Shown here piece after piece: positions 1 to 5,591 of a stretch of 5,591 nucleotides of DNA. A program made the translations under genes and the position numbers. Below the pieces are notes generated by a model. It did not search any database. It saw only the letters and a program-made list of their open reading frames with translations, and had not been told where the DNA came from. This stretch comes from a virus (Duplodnaviria; Heunggongvirae; Uroviricota; Caudoviricetes): the IMG/VR virus record IMGVR_UViG_2585427777_000009, positions 1 through 5,591 of that record; one strand, given 5' to 3'. The stretch's first letter is position 1, and each line of letters begins with the position of its first letter.

Positions 1-17
1 ACCTTGGTTTAAGAGAA
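1..17. other. Left crossover site in inverted orientation, truncated by the window start (central TT at positions 4-5)
   Basis: Positions 1-17 (ACCTTGGTTTAAGAGAA) are the exact reverse complement of 5114-5130. The outer 9 bp of the site would lie left of the window. Confidence 0.65.
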
Positions 18-148
18 CTCGGTACCAGCGGTGAAAAGATCCCCCTGTTGAGTACGGCTAACACATGGAGTGCGCGCCAGACTTTCAACGGCGGGATCAC
101 CGGGGCGCTGACAGGGAACGCCGACACCGCGACGAAATTAAAAACAGC
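1..148. repeat. Left arm of the segment-flanking inverted repeat (pairs with 4983-5130)
   Basis: Hand-aligned reverse complement of 4983-5130 matches 1-148 with 3 mismatches (positions 53, 107, 140), all third-codon-position synonymous changes. Similarity drops to protein level only beyond 148. Confidence 0.9.
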
Positions 149-2237
149 CATAAACATTAATGGCGTCAGGTTCGATGGTTCGGCTGACATTACGTTGACT
201 CCTAAAGATCTGGACGTTTACAGCAAAAGCGAAATAGACAATAAAAAAGGGATGAGAAAATACACTTTTTCAGCGCCTGCAAATGCAGTAAGCGGTAAGT
301 GGTATCCTATAGTCTTTCGCCGATCTAGAGGCAGTACCGATGAATTAGCCTCACGAGTTGTGATAACTACTTATTCCTCAGCTGGCGGATACGCCATGAA
401 TAATTGTGAATTTAATGGTTTTGTTATGCCTGGCGGTTGGTCTGATCGCGGTTCATATGCGGCTGGTTTTTTCTCAATATATTCTACTGCTGAGCGAGCT
501 ATACACTCGATTATTTCAAGTGTGAAAGATGACGATTTGTGTAGTGTGTTTTACGTTGAAGCCAGAGCATTTCCTATCAAGATATTTGCTGAGGAGGGCT
601 TGAACGTAATTGTTCCAACTACTGACTATACCGTTGGTCAAGCCACCTATAAGTGGGGGGCCACAGATCCAGTAGCAGAAAGTACAAATACTCAAACCAT
701 TCTGGATTTTAAAAATGGACGTGGTTATTACTGCTCACATCAGTTTGTTTCAAGCCTTTCAGGAAATGCAGCAACAGCAACGAAATTAGCAAGTTCAATA
801 AACATAGGTGGTGTATCCTTTGATGGTTCAGCCGATATAGATTTGCCTGGTGTTAATGCGACTGGTAATCAGAACACCACGGGGAATGCGGCGTCTGCCA
901 CGAAATTACAAACGGCAAGAACCATTGGTGGCGTTTCATTTGATGGCTCCGCCAATATCAACCTGCCGGGCGTGAATATTGCTGGTAGCCAGAACACGAC
1001 TGGTAATGCTGCAACCGCAACGAAACTTCAGACGGCCCGCACAATAGGCGGCGTGTCATTCGATGGTAGTGCCAATATCGACCTGCCAGGTGTGAATAAA
1101 ACAGGTAATCAGAGCACAACCGGTAATGCTGCAACTGCAACAAAACTGCAAACAGCACGCACAATAGGCGGCGTGTCATTCGATGGCTCCGCCAATATCA
1201 ACCTGCCGGGTGTAAACATTGCTGGTAACCAGAACACAACCGGTAATGCAGCGACAGCGACCAAGTTACAAACCGCTAGAACTATAAATGGGGTGTCGTT
1301 TGACGGTTCTAAAAACATTGAGCTAACTCCAAGGTCTATAGGCACGATCAACTCAGCAACAATGTCTTTTAGTGGTGGTGCCGGATGGTTCAAGCTGGCA
1401 ACTGTAACCATGCCACAAGCCAGTTCCGTGGTTTACATAAGCCTGATTGGTGGCGCAGGGTTTAACGTTGGCTCCCCGCAGCAAGCAGGCATCTCTGAGC
1501 TGGTTCTGCGTGCAGGAAATGGGAACCCCAAAGGTATTACTGGTGCATTATGGCGACGGACCTCGGTTGGATTTACTAATTTTGCATGGGTGAATACATC
1601 CGGTGATACCTATGACATTTATGTAGAAATAGGTAATTACGCCACAGGTGTTAATATCCAGTGGGATTATACCAGTAACGCCAGCGTAACGATTCATACA
1701 TCACCAACTTATACAGCGAATAAACCAACAGGCCTGACAGATGGAACTGTATATGTAATTTACAGTTCGCACATTAAACCGACTGCTGCTGATGTTGGGG
1801 CGTTATCATTATCTGGAGGTCAATTGAATGGTGCACTGGGCATCGGTACATCCAGTGCTCTTGGCGGTAACTCGATTGTTTTGGGTGATAATGACACGGG
1901 CTTTAAACAAAATGGCGACGGTAATCTGGATGTTTATGCTAATAACGTCCATGTTATGCGCTTTGTCTCCGGTAGCATTCAAAGTAATAAAACCATAAAT
2001 ATTACGGGGCGTGTTAATCCCTCGGATTACGGTAACTTTGATTCCCGCTATGTGAGAGATGTCAGACTTGGCACACGTGTTGTCCAGACCATGCAGAAAG
2101 GGGTGATGTATGAGAAAGCAGGGCATGTAATTACAGGGCTTGGTATTGTCGGTGAAGTCGATGGTGATGACCCCGCAGTATTCAGACCAATACAAAAATA
2201 CATCAATGGCACATGGTATAACGTCGCACAGGTGTAG
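1..2237 (+). CDS. Tail fiber protein, alternative variable C-terminal cassette (Sv'-like), silent in this orientation; 5' end is the crossover site and it has no start of its own
   Basis: Frame is open from position 3 ([22 protein letters not shown]...), identical to the minus-strand fiber across the inverted repeat. The TTG at 48 used by the ORF track is not a real start. Contains repeated [32 protein letters not shown] fiber-shaft motifs and a C-terminal [26 protein letters not shown]...NGTWYNVAQV module shared with the other fiber. Stop TAG at 2235-2237, followed 3 nt later by a tfa gene. Confidence 0.85.
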   Translation, partial: LGLRELGTSGEKIPLLSTANTWSARQTFNGGITGALTGNADTATKLKTAININGVRFDGSADITLTPKDLDVYSKSEIDNKKGMRKYTFSAPANAVSGKWYPIVFRRSRGSTDELASRVVITTYSSAGGYAMNNCEFNGFVMPGGWSDRGSYAAGFFSIYSTAERAIHSIISSVKDDDLCSVFYVEARAFPIKIFAEEGLNVIVPTTDYTVGQATYKWGATDPVAESTNTQTILDFKNGRGYYCSHQFVSSLSGNAATATKLASSINIGGVSFDGSADIDLPGVNATGNQNTTGNAASATKLQTARTIGGVSFDGSANINLPGVNIAGSQNTTGNAATATKLQTARTIGGVSFDGSANIDLPGVNKTGNQSTTGNAATATKLQTARTIGGVSFDGSANINLPGVNIAGNQNTTGNAATATKLQTARTINGVSFDGSKNIELTPRSIGTINSATMSFSGGAGWFKLATVTMPQASSVVYISLIGGAGFNVGSPQQAGISELVLRAGNGNPKGITGALWRRTSVGFTNFAWVNTSGDTYDIYVEIGNYATGVNIQWDYTSNASVTIHTSPTYTANKPTGLTDGTVYVIYSSHIKPTAADVGALSLSGGQLNGALGIGTSSALGGNSIVLGDNDTGFKQNGDGNLDVYANNVHVMRFVSGSIQSNKTINITGRVNPSDYGNFDSRYVRDVRLGTRVVQTMQKGVMYEKAGHVITGLGIVGEVDGDDPAVFRPIQKYINGTWYNVAQV
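762..1331 (+). repeat. Tandem 120-bp in-frame coding repeats (40-aa phage fiber-shaft repeat), about 4.75 copies
   Basis: Units at 762-881, 882-1001, 1002-1121, 1122-1241 and a partial unit 1242-1331. Each encodes [40 protein letters not shown]. Exact nucleotide runs of about 30 bp recur between units (e.g. cgcacaataggcggcgtgtcattcgatgg at about 1037 and 1157). Confidence 0.9.
2040..2237 (+). repeat. Internal diverged inverted repeat: conserved fiber C-terminal module (pairs with 3332-3529)
   Basis: The last ~65 codons of the two fibers are about 85% identical at nucleotide level by eye and about 90% at protein level (DSRYVRD(V/I)[18 protein letters not shown]...NGTWYNV(A/S)QV). Confidence 0.8.
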
Positions 2238-2240
2238 TTT

Positions 2241-2768
2241 ATGCAGCATTTAAAAAATATTACTGCGGGTAATCCAAAAACTGTTGCCCAGTATCAACTG
2301 ACAAAAAATTTTGATGTTATCTGGTTATGGTCCGAAGAGGGAAAAAACTGGTATGAGGAAGTAAGTAATTTTCAGGAAGACACGATAAAGATTGTTTACG
2401 ATGAAAATAATATTATTGTCGCCATCACCAGAGATGCTTCAACGCTTAACCCTGAAGGTTTTAGCGTTGTCGAGGTTCCTGATATTACTGCCAACCGACG
2501 TGCTGATGACTCAGGTAAATGGATGTTTAAGGATGGTGCCGTGATTAAGCGGATTTATACGGCAGACGAACAGCAGCAACTGGCAGAATCACAAAAGGCA
2601 ACTTTGCTTTCCGAAGCCGAATCCGTGATTTTGCCGCTGGAGCGCGCTGTCAGGCTGAATATGGCAACAGATGAGGAACGCAGCCGACTGGAAGCATGGG
2701 AACGCTACAGCGTTCTTGTAAGCCGCGTGGATACGGCAAAGCCAGAATGGCCACAAAAACCTGAGTAA
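2241..2768 (+). CDS. Tail fiber assembly chaperone (Tfa; Mu U / lambda Tfa family), partner of the plus-strand fiber cassette
   Basis: 175-aa ORF starting at ATG 2241, 3 nt after the fiber stop. N-terminus [41 protein letters not shown] with internal [18 protein letters not shown] and C-terminal PEWPQKPE are recalled from memory as typical of enterobacterial phage Tfa proteins. N-terminal ~105 aa are ~75% identical to the minus-strand paralog. Stop TAA at 2766-2768 is followed by a hairpin terminator. Confidence 0.85.
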
Positions 2769-2772
2769 AAAT

Positions 2773-2796
2773 AAGGCCCGATAACGGGCCTTTTCT
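2773..2796. terminator. Bidirectional rho-independent terminator between the convergent tfa genes
   Basis: 8-bp stem (aaggcccg 2773-2780, complementary to cgggcctt 2785-2792) with loop ataa. It is flanked by T-runs on both strands (ttttct on plus; tattttt on minus, from 2764-2772). It lies between the plus tfa stop (2766-2768) and the minus tfa stop (2796-2798). Confidence 0.6.
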
Positions 2797-3329
2797 CATT
2801 CTGGTTGTTCGGGAAACGTTACTGGCAGGCTGGAGGTGTCTGTAGATTCGACTTTCTGCGCATAGAGCATCCACTCGGTTAATTTTTGTTTATTCTCGTC
2901 GGAAATGATGCCCAGCCGTAGCTGTGAGTCCCATAGCTGGGTTTTATCCCTGACAAGTTGCAACAGGCTTTGCTTTTCATTCTCTGCCTGCTGCCTCTGT
3001 TCCTCCTCGGTATAAGTTCGCTTTATCACTACGCCATCTTTGAACATCCATTTCCCCGAAATATCAGCCCGGCGATTTGCTGTAATATCAGGCAACTCAA
3101 CGACACTTAAACCTTCTGGATTAATTGCCGATACATCTTTATCCATAGCAACAATTATTCCATCTACAGTGTAAGCCAGTTTTATTGTATCTTCCTGAAA
3201 GTTTTTCACTTCCTCATACCAGTTTTTTCCATCTTCGGACCATAACCAGATAACATTAAAATTCTTTGTTAGCTGATATTGTTCAACGGTTTTTGGATTA
3301 CCTGCGACAATGTTTTTTAAATGCTGCAT
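2796..3329 (-). CDS. Tail fiber assembly chaperone (Tfa; Mu U / lambda Tfa family), partner of the minus-strand (expressed) fiber
   Basis: 177-aa ORF. Its ATG (complement of 3327-3329) lies 2 nt after the fiber stop (3332-3334). N-terminal half is a paralog of the plus-strand Tfa ([41 protein letters not shown]); the C-terminal ~70 aa are divergent. Ends in ...PEQPE, with the stop at 2796-2798 abutting the central hairpin. Confidence 0.85.
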
Positions 3330-3331
3330 GA

Positions 3332-3529
3332 TTATACCTGCGATACGTTATACCATGTTCCGTTAATTAACTTTTGTATTGGTCTGAATACTGCCGGATC
3401 ATCGCCATCAACTTCACCGACAATGCCAAGCCCCGTAATTGCATGACCTGATTTCTCATACATCACGCCTTTTTGCATAGTCTGAACAACACGTGTGCCC
3501 AGGCGAATATCTCGTACATAGCGAGAATC
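3332..3529 (-). repeat. Internal diverged inverted repeat: conserved fiber C-terminal module (pairs with 2040-2237)
   Basis: See the partner feature at 2040-2237. Confidence 0.8.
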
Positions 3530-5591
3530 CGATTCAGCTTTGGTATATGCACCAACATCCCCCGCAGAGGGTTTGCGGGTTGTGGTGTAAAACTCTGACC
3601 AGTTAGCTTCAAAGCCATAACCATCACGCGCTGAACGATAAAAGATACCGCCGTTCTTATAATTCACGCGGAACTGTACAGCAGGGCAACTCCCCGCATT
3701 CATATTGAAGTGGAGGATTAATGTCGATGCACCACTGATATCTGCATCATAAACACCGCTATTCCAGTTCCAGCCAACAGCTTTATCATTTGCAACCCTG
3801 CTTCCTGTTTGCCCTAAAGCGAATGCAGGCTGCTGGTTTTTCGTGTTGTAGTCTCGTCGCCAGCCAGGAGCATAAGCATCACCATGATTAATATAAGTGA
3901 ATTGAGCGTTAGTGATGCCGCCTCCGGTGGAAGTGCTTGGTGTTGTTACACGGATGGTCATGGCACCTTTATTGCCCATAACTTCAATAACGCAACCCGC
4001 AAGGTGAATAAGTCCACATCCGGTGTCAGTAATAATTTTATTATTGCCGTATGACCATGAGCATTTACACATCCAGTATGGATGATTGAAGGCCCACTGA
4101 GATTCCAGCCATTCAATAAATTGCGCCGTCGTCCAGTTTCCTGCACCTGTGCTAATAGAGCCATGAAAAGAGCGGCAAGCACCTATTGTTTGCGTAAATT
4201 TATCTTTGTTTGGAATATCTGCGCCGTTCTGGTTTTTCTGTAATGCTCCTGCGGCTAATTCTACAGTTTGCTCAAGATTTAAATCTGCCGCCGTTAGCTC
4301 AATATTTTTAGAACCATCAAACGACACCCCATTTATAGTTCGAGCGGTTTGTAACTTGGTCGCTGTCGCTGCATTACCTGTTGTATTCTGATTGCCAGTG
4401 GCATTAACACCAGGTAAATTAATATTCGCAGTACCATCAAAGCTAACTCCGCCGATAGTTCTTGCCGTCTGTAGTTTTGTAGCGGTCGCTGCATTGCCAG
4501 TTGTATTCTGATTGCCAGTGGCATTCACACCAGGAATGGAGTCCCTTGATGTATAGACCTGCGCCCAATCTGACCATGCAGCATCTGTTGTATCCCTACG
4601 GGAACGAATGAATGCCGGTGCATGTGCGCCACTTGTACCACTCCACCCAATAAGCAACTCTCCCTCACCAGCAGCACTCGCCCCTTTCATATGCAGAACA
4701 TTGCCGAATGATGTTGGGTAACTATTGCTATATGCTTCATACATTTGAATACCAGCAGTACCCTGAGTAGAGCCACTTAACGCCGTTACGGGCCCGCGTG
4801 ATACCAATGTATTAATGTTGATATCGCCTGAGCCATCAAACTTAACACCATTGATGTTTCTCGCCGTCGCAAGTTTTGTCGCGGTAGCAGCATTCCCCGT
4901 GGTGTTCTGGTTACCAGTTGTATTTACACCTGGAAGATTGATATTGGCCGAGCCATCAAATGCCACACCGCCAATAGTGCGTGCTGTTTTCAATTTCGTC
5001 GCGGTGTCGGCGTTCCCTGTCAGTGCCCCGGTGATCCCGCCGTTGAAAGTCTGGCGCGCACTCCATGTGTTAGCCGTGCTCAACAGGGGGATCTTTTCAC
5101 CGCTGGTACCGAGTTCTCTTAAACCAAGGTATTGGATAACGGCCAGTGTGCTTGTTTTAGCCAGAATATCGCGACCGACTGACGTTAAATCAGTCTGCGC
5201 TACCGTATCCTTACCAGTGAAATAAGGCAGTTTGTTTGCACCAGTCGCAAGGGCAGCGAGCGCGGTTAAAGTTGCATCCAGAGGCTGTTTGCCTGCCAGC
5301 GCATTTGTCATTGTTGTCGCAAAGTTCGGGTCATTGCCCAGTGCTGCTGCAAGCTCATTCAGGGTATCAAGAGCTTCAGGTGATGAGCCGACCAATGCAG
5401 AGATAGCAGCTCTTACATAAGCGGTCGTAGCAATCTGCGTGTTATTCGTACCCTGTGCAGCGGTAGGCGCAGTAGGTATTCCCGTTAATGCAGGACTTGC
5501 TAAAGGCGCTTTAAGGGCCAGAGCATTGTTGATAGTTGTGCTGAAATTCGGGTCGTTATTGATCGCAGCCGCTATTTCTTTCAGCGTATCC
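3332..5591 (-). CDS. Tail fiber protein in the expressed orientation: conserved N-terminal region (continues beyond the right window edge) fused in frame to a variable C-terminal cassette; 5' partial
   Basis: The minus-strand frame stays open upstream of the TTG at 5395 chosen by the ORF track, to the window end (my translation of 5396-5461: ...[22 protein letters not shown] then [25 protein letters not shown]), which is a typical phage tail-fiber N-proximal motif. It crosses the crossover site at 5114-5139 in frame. It contains two blocks of fiber-shaft repeats and a Cys/Trp-rich distal domain, and ends ...[65 protein letters not shown]. Confidence 0.9.
4292..4537 (-). repeat. Two tandem 120-bp fiber-shaft repeats in the minus-strand fiber (aa ~287-368)
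   Basis: Direct repeats are visible on the plus strand (gcattacctgttgtattctgattgccagtggcattaacaccagg at about 4370 and gcattgccagttgtattctgattgccagtggcattcacaccagg at about 4490). Translation gives [21 protein letters not shown](G/N)GVSFDG twice. Confidence 0.8.
4808..5017 (-). repeat. First block of fiber-shaft repeats in the minus-strand fiber (about 1.75 units), partly inside the flanking inverted repeat
   Basis: Encodes [40 protein letters not shown] followed by [30 protein letters not shown]. The counterpart motif in the plus-strand module is at about 114-203. Confidence 0.75.
4983..5130. repeat. Right arm of the segment-flanking inverted repeat (pairs with 1-148)
   Basis: See left arm. 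The repeat extends outward into the crossover site (to 5139), whose left-hand counterpart is outside the window. Confidence 0.9.
5114..5139. other. 26-bp DNA-invertase crossover site (hix/gix/cix family), right copy: TTCTCTTAAACC-AA-GGTATTGGATAA
   Basis: Imperfect palindrome of two 12-bp half-sites around a central AA dinucleotide (5126-5127). It closely resembles hixL (TTCTTGAAAACCAAGGTTTTTGATAA) and gixL (TTCCTGTAAACCGAGGTTTTGGATAA) as I recall them. It sits exactly at the outer boundary of the inverted repeat and inside the fiber reading frame. Confidence 0.75.

Follow-up and report, generated by a model that had tools for sequence, protein, structure and literature searches.

A predicted all-beta shaft domain of an unnamed family in the silent tail-fiber half of a P1/P7-type invertible segment

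Organization of the invertible segment

The stretch of DNA analyzed here (5,591 nucleotides, hereafter the window) is a P1/P7-type Cin-invertible C-segment (Din family). It is collinear with the annotated C-segment of P7, which is flanked by cin and cixL immediately to the left and by Sc and gpR to the right, and it shares with P7 and P1 the cix-bearing inverted repeats, an Sc part outside them, two convergent Sv/U sets and close DNA similarity. The two arms of the inverted repeat (I5; 1–184 and 4947–5130, 184 nt, 90% complementarity) align to the P7 cixL and cixR positions. Between them lie two convergent pairs of fiber and chaperone genes, recognized as ORFs and, for the chaperones, by Caudo_TAP matches. 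The features are as follows.

1–184, no strand: left inverted-repeat arm with a cixL-type crossover inside (nt 4/5 by homology to P7)
3–203, plus strand: start of the silent fiber part Sv', with the junction common to the Sv side followed by the first, terminal-type copy of a 40-aa repeat (nt 111–203; repeat family D2); frame open from nt 3
204–761, plus strand: 186-aa globular domain, predicted to be all-beta (AlphaFold2, alignment A1, family clusters, absence from P7 Sv')
762–1327, plus strand: five tandem 40-aa shaft repeats, the last a terminal-type half repeat (direct-repeat families D1 and D2 with 120-nt spacing; repeat alignment)
1328–2237, plus strand: distal Sv', a presumed receptor-binding region and a C-terminal part of ~75 aa resembling the Mu S tip (chaperone-bound); includes the stop codon
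2241–2768, plus strand: U', tail-fiber assembly chaperone for Sv' (Pfam Caudo_TAP, E = 6.6e-35)
2773–2792, no strand: bidirectional intrinsic-terminator-like hairpin between the convergent chaperone genes (terminator-like sites on both strands)
2796–3329, minus strand: U, tail-fiber assembly chaperone for the expressed Sv (Pfam Caudo_TAP, E = 4.8e-34)
3332–5126, minus strand: Sv, variable part of the expressed fiber (ORF continuous with Sc; collinearity with P7 gpS)
4947–5130, no strand: right inverted-repeat arm with a cixR-type crossover inside (nt 5126/5127 by homology)
5127–5591, minus strand: end of the constant part Sc of fiber gene S, which leaves the window (near-identical to Sc of P7 gpS; P7 annotation)

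The first nucleotide of the window corresponds to nt 1501 of the P7 locus, in which the annotated cixL crossover lies at 1504/1505; the window thus begins 4 nt before the crossover, and cin is expected outside it. In both P7 and an E. albertii plasmid that carries the domain, a cin/recombinase gene ends immediately before the matching position.

The minus-strand fiber part is continuous with Sc and the plus-strand part begins at a cix site. The former is the fiber currently expressed and the latter is the silent alternative 3' half of gene S, an assignment that the initial annotation had made correctly. The plus-strand frame stays open over 745 codons, from nt 3 up to the stop codon at 2235–2237, and U' is intact. 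The Sc–Sv junction on the opposite arm encodes a peptide identical to that of the silent side. Were the segment to invert at the cix sites, Sc would be joined in frame to Sv' and the 186-aa domain would become part of the fiber, with U' as the chaperone. The evidence for both orientations comes from relatives and not from the element in the window itself: in the window and in NZ_CP030784.2 the half with the domain is silent, and in pEA50_2 (NZ_CP117572.1) and pCombat11I9-3 the domain belongs to a full-length S gene that comes straight after gpR. The fusion of the Sv' half to Sc in these other plasmids represents the inverted state. In three sequence collections no record matched the window over its full length at high identity; the best hit reached 85% coverage at 89% identity. 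The finding leaves the understanding of the Cin switch unchanged.

The distal parts and the chaperones have solved relatives. The last ~77 aa of Sv' match the Mu tail fiber S (5yvq_A, E = 1.2e-15), distal Sv' also matches 6f45 (long tail fiber distal subunit, E = 1e-5), and a weak match to Pfam gp37_trimer stays below threshold (E = 0.0029, 18 bits against a cut-off of 21.7). U' matches Mu U (5yvq_B) over its full length with E = 1.8e-103, and U and U' form a 77% inverted repeat across 347 nt. Read from its Sc end, the expressed Sv consists of repeats, a 91-aa knob (4538–4810), further repeats and a Cys/Trp-rich distal domain of the P1/P7 S type (3332–4290), and its distal part matches 8ju3_A (Tail fiber protein S / S' chimera) with E = 4.6e-151.

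The expressed Sv and P7 gpS are collinear and share the 91-aa knob and the Cys/Trp-rich distal domain. The initial annotation had described the former as an insertion and taken both for independently acquired modules; the two segments do exist, but both are found in P7 gpS and in the S protein of an E. albertii plasmid and are therefore canonical parts and no special insertions. Unlike P7 gpS, the window Sv has two extra repeats and a different stretch of ~50 aa at its end, which resembles the Sv'/Mu S-type tip and not the P7 S tip. On the silent side, P7 Sv' lacks the 186-aa domain and carries about two repeats only. The invertible segment is about 5.1 kb long in the window, compared with about 4.0 kb in P7.

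Boundaries, composition and predicted fold of the domain

An AT-rich segment inserted between the junction repeat and the tandem repeats is indeed present: nt 204–761 encode 186 aa in frame with the long plus-strand ORF, preceded by 52 aa from the ORF start and followed by about 490 aa in Sv'. The segment separates one copy of the 40-aa repeat (nt 111–203) from five copies that begin at nt 762, and the spacing of repeat copies across it is 648 nt, as opposed to 120 nt elsewhere, an excess of 528 nt. In P7 Sv' the sequence ..TATKLKTA joins directly to what follows, whereas the window has, in addition, the domain with a repeat half on either side. Similarity to P7 Sv' accordingly stops at nt 148 and similarity to the Sv side of P7 at nt 194; similarity to phages HdSG1 and 9W begins at nt 216 and, in HdSG1, continues through two repeats to nt 1039. 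The left edge of the domain thus lies just past a terminal-type repeat copy (..INGVxFDGSxxI..), and the right edge runs into the next repeat array.

The domain is lower in GC than its surroundings (0.414, compared with 0.487 in the repeats, 0.532 in the junction and 0.462 in the window), so composition is not uniform along the ORF. The deviation is nevertheless modest and does not make the segment an outlier: the domain lies at the 8.6th percentile of all GC values of 558-nt windows, and the chaperone genes go down to 0.34. Its codon composition deviates in the same direction, with a GC3 of 0.323 against 0.416–0.427 in other coding sequence (Fisher p = 0.012–0.015), and does not differ significantly from that of the distal part of the same ORF (p = 0.12). 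In the four other genomes checked the module is 1–5 GC points below its surroundings (3–5 points in the three with the whole module). The deviation being small and similar in other genomes, strong compositional foreignness was rejected. The Cys residues noted earlier in this segment are real but number just three, of which only C68 is typical of the family (76% conservation).

AlphaFold2 predicts the segment, modeled as a monomer, with high confidence (pLDDT 90.4, pTM 0.87) as an all-beta structure of about 13 strands, with a short helix (VYSKSEIDNKK) at the N-terminus leading into a beta-sandwich-like core at aa ~15–180 (nt ~246–743). On this model the segment appears to be a genuine self-folding domain.

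The domain has no counterpart in the expressed fiber, as had been proposed at the outset. BLASTP gave E = 1.6 against the 91-aa insert and E >= 1.6 against the whole 752-aa fiber, and profile–profile comparison with hhalign gave a probability of 0.1% for the knob and 0.4% for the 40-aa repeats. The domain aligned by neither method to the other insert or to ordinary repeats. It was suspected of homology to the 91-aa insert from overlapping positions in phrog_454, a long mosaic fiber family that both segments match; BLASTP and hhalign reject this relationship, and hhalign likewise rejects an origin from diverged shaft repeats.

A widespread domain family

The search for remote relatives recovered no known domain but defined a large family. 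Pfam and NCBIfam scans of the domain, and Pfam scans of each of the 58 members of an alignment built from it (A1), returned nothing for the domain, and neither the single sequence nor the 58-member profile found a relative in the PDB; the matches to antibody VH domains there are at chance level (E >= 0.028) and were rejected as spurious. The family, an unnamed tail-fiber shaft domain family defined here by alignment A1, is without a Pfam, NCBIfam or PDB entry and thus has neither a name nor a solved structure. Neither sequence nor fold comparison gave significant homology to a lectin, a carbohydrate-binding module (CBM) or an enzyme. Nor did the domain show significant similarity to any solved carbohydrate-binding domain of the galectin-like, laminin-G/concanavalin-like or CBM beta-sandwich classes.

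At E <= 1e-3 the family comprises 130 representative clusters of proteins 400–2,700 aa long, with phmmer E-values reaching 1e-119, and tblastn matches it in 261 phage records. The carriers include side fibers of Nonagvirus, T5-like long fibers, rV5-like lateral fibers, T4-like Aeromonas fibers, lambdoid mEp460 and P2-like gpH, and the family is found only in fiber proteins of phages of Gram-negative hosts. Conservation at the protein level extends through the A1 members down to 26–40% identity. The family motifs, spread over about 165 aa, are APxGAxxGKYYPV, PMNNCxFxGxVRxGGWSDRG, ERAIHSI and VFYVExRAFP, all of which are present in the window copy; P35, N66, G78, Y117, F123 and P124 are invariant in the alignment. 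BFVD models of domain-bearing fibers superpose at TM 0.7–0.9. Of the 92 distinct full-coverage matches, 88 have 50 or more fiber residues after the domain; the remaining four comprise at least two fragments, P0001 and P0010, which are marked partial or have no start Met, together with P0037 and P0039.

It should be noted that N66, D81 and E97, which are invariant or nearly so, and the common residues H101 and S102 lie in or beside predicted loops, an arrangement that also fits a binding or catalytic site.

The Pfam domains that adjoin the domain vary between family members (Gp34_trimer, Collar, Peptidase_S74, Phage_tail_fib). None of the 58 A1 members matches Gp34_trimer (PF21446) at E <= 1; in P0025 the Gp34_trimer match sits about 250 residues downstream of the domain, and in P0032 and P0034 the matching stretch overlaps the last ~50 residues of the domain and mostly covers the adjacent segment. 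The 40-aa repeats were considered as Phage_fiber_2 (PF03406) and this was rejected, neither window fiber matching at E <= 0.1. In relatives PF03406 covers another region, which in P0032 lies some 17 residues upstream of the domain. Judging by its location and the character of the family, this is probably the ..LAATPKAVK.. segment and not the 40-aa repeat.

Exchange of the domain between fiber genes

The view that the domain is an independently acquired, separable module is borne out by its absence from P7 Sv' and by closely similar DNA in the unrelated siphophage HdSG1 (92%) and in P2-like gpH genes (73%). The nearest carriers are P1-like phage-plasmids of E. coli, E. albertii and Salmonella (e.g., NZ_CP030784.2 and pEA50_2, NZ_CP117572.1), in which the junction repeat and domain are 99% identical to those of the window and cin lies directly upstream. 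The E. albertii plasmid Sv' differs in having about two repeats (one full, one terminal-type), compared with five in the window, and another C-terminal tip. At least 55 P1-like plasmid records carry the junction repeat and domain at >=99% identity. Among these plasmids the Sv' variants differ from the window, P0022 by the addition of the 91-aa knob and P0023 by an S-type tip, and the orientation varies by record. The same junction and domain are thus joined either to the plus-type tip (window, P0022) or to a P1/P7 S-type tip (P0023). Moreover, the domain and the 91-aa knob occur together in one polypeptide, in either order, in P0022, P0028, P0032, P0034 and P0035.

Outside the P1-like group, homologous domains always lie inside side or lateral fibers, as in the Nonagvirus HdSG1 (92% nt) and the P2-like gpH of 9W (73% nt); the other carriers (30–57% aa) include the Nonagvirus phages JenK1 and 9g, the P2-like gpH of P22H4, T5-like long fibers and rV5-like lateral fibers such as that of MaxBurger. 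The fibers of these unrelated phages differ from that of the window in belonging to sipho- or myo-type virions and in having other N-terminal attachment parts, tips and chaperones, and most of their genes lie outside invertible segments.

The domain is, in short, a cassette shuffled between fiber genes, a case of ordinary tail-fiber mosaicism, and the conserved 40-aa repeats supply the homology that moves whole domains, with or without adjoining repeats, among unrelated phages. Mobile domains within fiber shafts have been described before (PMC12143355). The mobile pseudo-domains of the RBPseg atlas (pyocin knob D7; D11, D40 and D73 of distal T4 gp34; D42), whose position and partners change across diverse phages, represent the same phenomenon (PMC12143355). 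Recent spread, as opposed to functional constraint, may account for the near-identity of the domain among the many P1-like plasmids.

The locus therefore offers a worked example of fibers built from interchangeable parts, with one domain, two tips and 40-aa repeats as the recombination joints. For the engineering of fibers on P1 or P2 delivery particles, the repeat boundaries at nt ~195–215 and at nt 762 are natural splice points. The family is frequent in fibers of coliphages and of Salmonella and Aeromonas phages, and naming it or solving its structure would remove a recurrent block of "unknown" annotation.

Role of the domain in the fiber

In our opinion, the segment probably represents a widespread, unnamed, self-folding all-beta shaft domain with an accessory role, receptor choice being set by the distal tips and their chaperones. 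Three copies of the domain would form a knob-like node on the fiber shaft. The conserved stretch at aa 64–124, much of which falls in predicted loops, would most likely contribute the core and the trimer interface, and the variable, indel-rich loops at aa 41–50, 103–112 and 130–170 would face the solvent; this division into a conserved interface and exposed variable loops is inferred from conservation and secondary structure only. The accessory role may be structural (spacing, stiffness or a hinge) or consist in weak secondary binding to surface glycans. The primary choice of receptor, and hence the difference between the orientations, would be set by the distal C-terminal domains (1328–2237 versus 3332–4290) with their cognate U' and U, because the distal parts and chaperones match the solved Mu S, S' and U proteins and because published work on P1 assigns host specificity to Sv and Sv' (PMC13172314).

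The initial annotation had proposed that the two orientations target different receptors through their inserted modules. Different receptors are likely, this being the established function of the switch in P1 (PMC13172314), but the inserts are not the cause. As regards the 186-aa domain, it is internal, ~490 residues follow it, it is fused to both tip types and it co-occurs with the knob; its designation as a receptor-binding module likewise found no backing in lectin, CBM or enzyme homology by sequence or fold.

A direct role in adsorption deserves discussion all the same. Here the domain would be an adhesin that gives the Sv' fiber a distinct or additional receptor, such as O-antigen or a capsule sugar, and contributes to the host-range difference. 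A scaffold that is conserved while its indel-rich loops vary is compatible with a binding domain, the all-beta fold weakly resembles galectin, laminin-G and tailspike accessory domains, only fibers of phages of Gram-negative hosts carry the family, and P1 S' is reported to bind O-antigen (PMC13172314). We nevertheless regard this as unlikely. The domain is internal (at least 50 residues follow it in 88 of 92 matches, about 490 in the window), it is combined with both distal-tip types of the window, and its sequence hardly varies between plasmids (>=99% identity in at least 55 of them), whereas variability in fibers usually peaks in the receptor-binding tips. P7 Sv', in addition, is known to be functional without it. 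Lateral binding sites along fibers are known, and an internal domain may still contact a receptor.

Somewhat differently, the conserved polar residues (motifs MNNC, GGWSDRG and ERAIHS; N66, D81 and E97) might form a ligand pocket, in which case the family would be a new glycan-binding or glycan-modifying module; we put this forward tentatively and consider it rather doubtful. Were it true, the shaft would carry a second specificity, independent of the distal tip and swapped separately, and host range would depend on which shaft and tip modules are combined.

That the domain is a small glycan-modifying or depolymerizing enzyme on the fiber shaft is highly improbable. The invariant or near-invariant N66, D81, E97 and Y117 and the common H101, S102 and R121 do cluster within aa 64–124, and the best, weak fold matches are parts of tailspike-type glycanases (6tgf WceF, 6c72, 8oq0); the domain, however, matches no enzyme family by sequence or profile, and it is a 186-aa beta-sandwich without a recognizable catalytic motif.

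Finally, the segment is almost certainly not a decayed, non-functional remnant in a silent copy with its composition difference as noise, for although this gene half is unexpressed in the present orientation, the compositional deviation is small and the annotation of HdSG1 divides the homologous gene into two overlapping CDSs whose meeting point is within the module, such a reading is effectively refuted by protein conservation across the 58 aligned members with their invariant residues and by the intact frames (745 open codons and an intact U'), and is further opposed by the confident fold prediction and by the fusion of the same gene half to Sc in other plasmids.

Position in the invertible segment

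The domain encoded at 204-761 (186 aa) lies in the silent half of a Cin-type switch; it is intact and conserved, and its fold is predicted with confidence. The window is a P1/P7-type invertible tail-fibre segment, and the switch is a textbook P1/P7 C-segment; its megablast matches are the annotated C-segment of P7 and those of P1, D6 and RCS47. Two long ORFs run convergently through it, and its main features are as follows.

1-184 and 4947-5130: 184-nt inverted repeat at the ends, 90% complementarity
3-2237, plus strand: open fibre frame (silent half, Sv')
111-203, plus: single upstream copy of the 40-aa repeat; also used to compare repeat forms
204-761, plus: the domain, 186 codons, in frame
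from 762, plus: five further repeat copies at 120-nt spacing
1242-1327, plus: repeat copy used to compare forms
2241-2768, plus: Caudo_TAP chaperone gene after the plus fibre (U')
3329-2796, minus: second Caudo_TAP gene, after the minus fibre (U)
from beyond the window end to 3332, minus: fibre frame (expressed half, Sv)
4811-4900 and 4291-4330, minus: repeat copies used to compare forms

In P7, cin and cixL lie directly to the left of the equivalent of window nt 1, and Sc and gpR to the right; by homology, the crossover points would fall at nt 4/5 and nt 5126/5127. Because the minus fibre runs on without a break into the constant part Sc, it is the expressed form. The plus fibre starts at the crossover site with the same junction peptide as the minus side, so that inversion would fuse it in frame to Sc. 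The labels "silent" and "expressed" of the initial annotation are right. Moreover, in the related plasmids pEA50_2 and pCombat11I9-3 the domain-bearing half is joined to Sc directly after gpR, which indicates that the domain is expressed after inversion.

pCombat11I9-3 is an IncY plasmid; after its domain-bearing S gene come a chaperone gene and a convergent gene for serine acetyltransferase (5470-6596 of its locus). Neither a second fibre half nor an invertase is annotated in this stretch; the switch may therefore be lost there, with the domain-bearing fibre fixed as the expressed one.

Boundaries and composition

The gap between the first and second repeat copies of the plus fibre is 648 nt. 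In alignment with P7 Sv', the extra window sequence falls exactly at the segment: the window reads ...KLKTA-ININGVRFDGSADITLTP-[domain]..., where P7 joins directly. Relative to P7 Sv', the insertion consists of one repeat unit plus the globular segment. The segment was said to have no counterpart in the expressed fibre, and BLASTP indeed shows no similarity to the minus fibre or its 91-aa insert. Profile-profile comparison with hhalign likewise found none (probability 0.1% against the insert, 0.4% against the repeats), so alignment to the other insert or to ordinary shaft repeats is ruled out.

The segment is AT-rich as described (GC 0.414, vs 0.487 in the repeats and 0.462 in the window), but the deviation is weak: among stretches of its size it lies at the 8.6th percentile, and AT content is higher in the chaperone genes. 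Its GC3 is 0.323 vs about 0.42 in other coding sequence (p = 0.012-0.015); against the distal portion of its own ORF the difference is not significant (p = 0.12). In HdSG1, 9W and an E. albertii plasmid, the homologous module has a GC content 3-5 points lower than the sequence around it; for the part of it present in 9g the deficit is about 1 point. Thus, the bias tends to travel with the module. The "several Cys" amount to three, only C68 being typical of the family.

Spread and shuffling of the domain

In at least 55 P1-like plasmids (E. coli, E. albertii, Salmonella), the junction repeat and domain match at 99% identity or more; in all, 166 plasmid records contain them. The domain is absent from canonical P7, in contrast to the window's Sv', and a distant DNA search for it returned no P1 or P7 record among the matches. 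Its DNA shares 92% identity with part of a side-fibre gene in the siphophage vB_EcoS_HdSG1 and 73% with part of gpH in P2-like phages. The HdSG1 gene is annotated as two overlapping CDSs (2384-4453 and 4413-6101 of locus L003) with their junction inside the module (4001-4547), which could be due to a frameshift or a sequencing error, or to a gene that is really split.

Similarity to P7 stops at nt 148 (Sv' side) or nt 194 (Sv side); that to HdSG1 and 9W begins at nt 216 and, for HdSG1, goes on across two repeats up to nt 1039. These breakpoints place the exchange joints in or adjoining repeats. Repeat copies preceding a globular domain have the form ..INGVxFDGSxxIxL/I.. without LPGVN (4/4), and those preceding another repeat have the other form (6/6). 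The "ING" form resembles a half-repeat of terminal or adaptor type that marks domain boundaries.

What follows the junction repeat and domain varies among close relatives: in the window, five repeats and the plus-type tip; in the homologous fibre protein P0022, the same type of tip, but preceded by two repeats, the 91-aa knob and one repeat; two repeats and the Cys/Trp-rich P1/P7 S-type tip, the type found on the window's minus strand, in P0023. Five proteins carry the knob and the domain in one polypeptide, in either order. Taken together, the spread over plasmids and phages, the breakpoints, the varied tips and the co-occurrence with the knob indicate that the domain is separate from the choice of receptor-binding tip.

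Domain family and probable role

An exhaustive HMMER scan yielded 130 representative clusters at E <= 1e-3, 110 of them at E <= 1e-10, and tblastn found the domain in 261 phage records, spanning Nonagvirus side fibres, T5-like long fibres, rV5-like lateral fibres, T4-like Aeromonas phages, lambdoid mEp460 and P2-like gpH. Several records of ~135-140 kb labelled "Campylobacter phage" (tblastn matches H118, H125) carry it at ~30-31% identity, the same as rV5-like Escherichia phages; mislabelling or contamination may account for these. Most full-length members are long proteins (400-2,700 aa), with flanks varying widely: 40-aa repeats, ..NGADIPDKGRFLS linkers, collar-like and gp34-like segments.

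AlphaFold2, run on a 58-member alignment (26-88% identity to the window sequence), gave a confident all-beta model of about 13 strands and a short N-terminal helix (pLDDT 90.4, pTM 0.87). Strong matches (TM 0.7-0.9) among predicted viral structures are fibres of JenK1, Vibrio phage phi 3, Aeromonas phages pAh6-C and phiAS4 (gp37) and Escherichia phage navn. Pfam and NCBIfam hold no family matching the domain, and PDB sequence and profile searches gave chance matches only; neither family nor fold has a name in any database searched.

In our opinion, this shuffled shaft module probably plays an accessory part, the primary receptor being set by the distal domains and their chaperones. Three copies would make up a knob-like node of the trimeric shaft, with the conserved central stretch as core and interface and the variable loops exposed; the role would be structural, or a weak secondary glycan contact. 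Published work assigns P1 host specificity to Sv and Sv', the ligand being the LPS outer core for S and the O-antigen for S' (PMC13172314). Mobile compact domains of fibre shafts have been catalogued (PMC12143355). A direct receptor-binding role is rather unlikely: at least 50 fibre residues follow the domain C-terminally in 88 of the 92 distinct matches covering nearly the whole of it (of the other four, P0001, named "partial", and P0010, without start Met, are evident fragments; the others are P0037 and P0039). There is some chance that residues conserved in the loops create a pocket for binding or catalysis, which would make the family a new shaft-borne specificity module. Six residues are invariant in the 58-member alignment, and APxGAxxGKYYPV, PMNNCxFxGxVRxGGWSDRG, ERAIHSI and VFYVExRAFP are strongly conserved, with aa 41-50, 103-112 and 130-170 variable and indel-rich. 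An enzymatic role is improbable. That so conserved a segment is a non-functional remnant, despite its silent position, is hardly credible.

The window as a mosaic

That P1, P2, Mu, lambda and T-even phages exchange fibre segments horizontally is knowledge dating from the early 1990s. The whole window was not found at high identity in the phage, plasmid and E. coli (complete genome) collections; the closest record there reaches only 85% coverage at 89% identity, which makes the window's combination of parts a new mosaic, with single blocks up to 99% identical. The element is thus made of known blocks in a new combination absent from the collections searched, and novelty is limited to this particular mosaic and to a frequent fibre domain family without name, profile or solved structure.

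The 91-aa insert (4538-4810) and the Cys/Trp-rich distal domain (3332-4290) of the expressed fibre, initially regarded as acquired modules, are present but not special. P7 gpS and the S protein of an E. albertii plasmid align with both, residue for residue, and for the distal part there is a match of known structure, chain 8ju3_A (Tail fiber protein S / S'), with E = 4.6e-151; they are canonical parts. Compared with P7 gpS, Sv has two additional 40-aa repeats, one before the knob and one after it (4811-5010 and 4291-4537, minus strand); repeat copy number thus differs between otherwise near-identical fibres and would change fibre length.

The last ~50 aa of Sv, unlike those of P7 gpS, resemble the plus-fibre tip. 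The S and Sv' tips of P7 differ, whereas the window combines an S-type distal domain with an Sv'/Mu S-like tip. As inverted repeats, the last ~65 codons of the fibres are 84% identical (2040-2236, plus, vs 3333-3529, minus) and the first ~115 codons of the chaperones 77% (2241-2587 vs 2983-3329). This pattern suggests that tip and chaperone were once exchanged as a unit within the segment, and that the chaperones may be cross-compatible. The match of U' to Mu U (5yvq_B) has E = 1.8e-103, and over its final ~77 aa Sv' matches the end of Mu S that is bound by the chaperone (5yvq_A). Between the convergent chaperone genes lies a GC-rich hairpin resembling a bidirectional terminator (2773-2792, AAGGCCCG-ATAA-CGGGCCTT), with T-runs on both strands.
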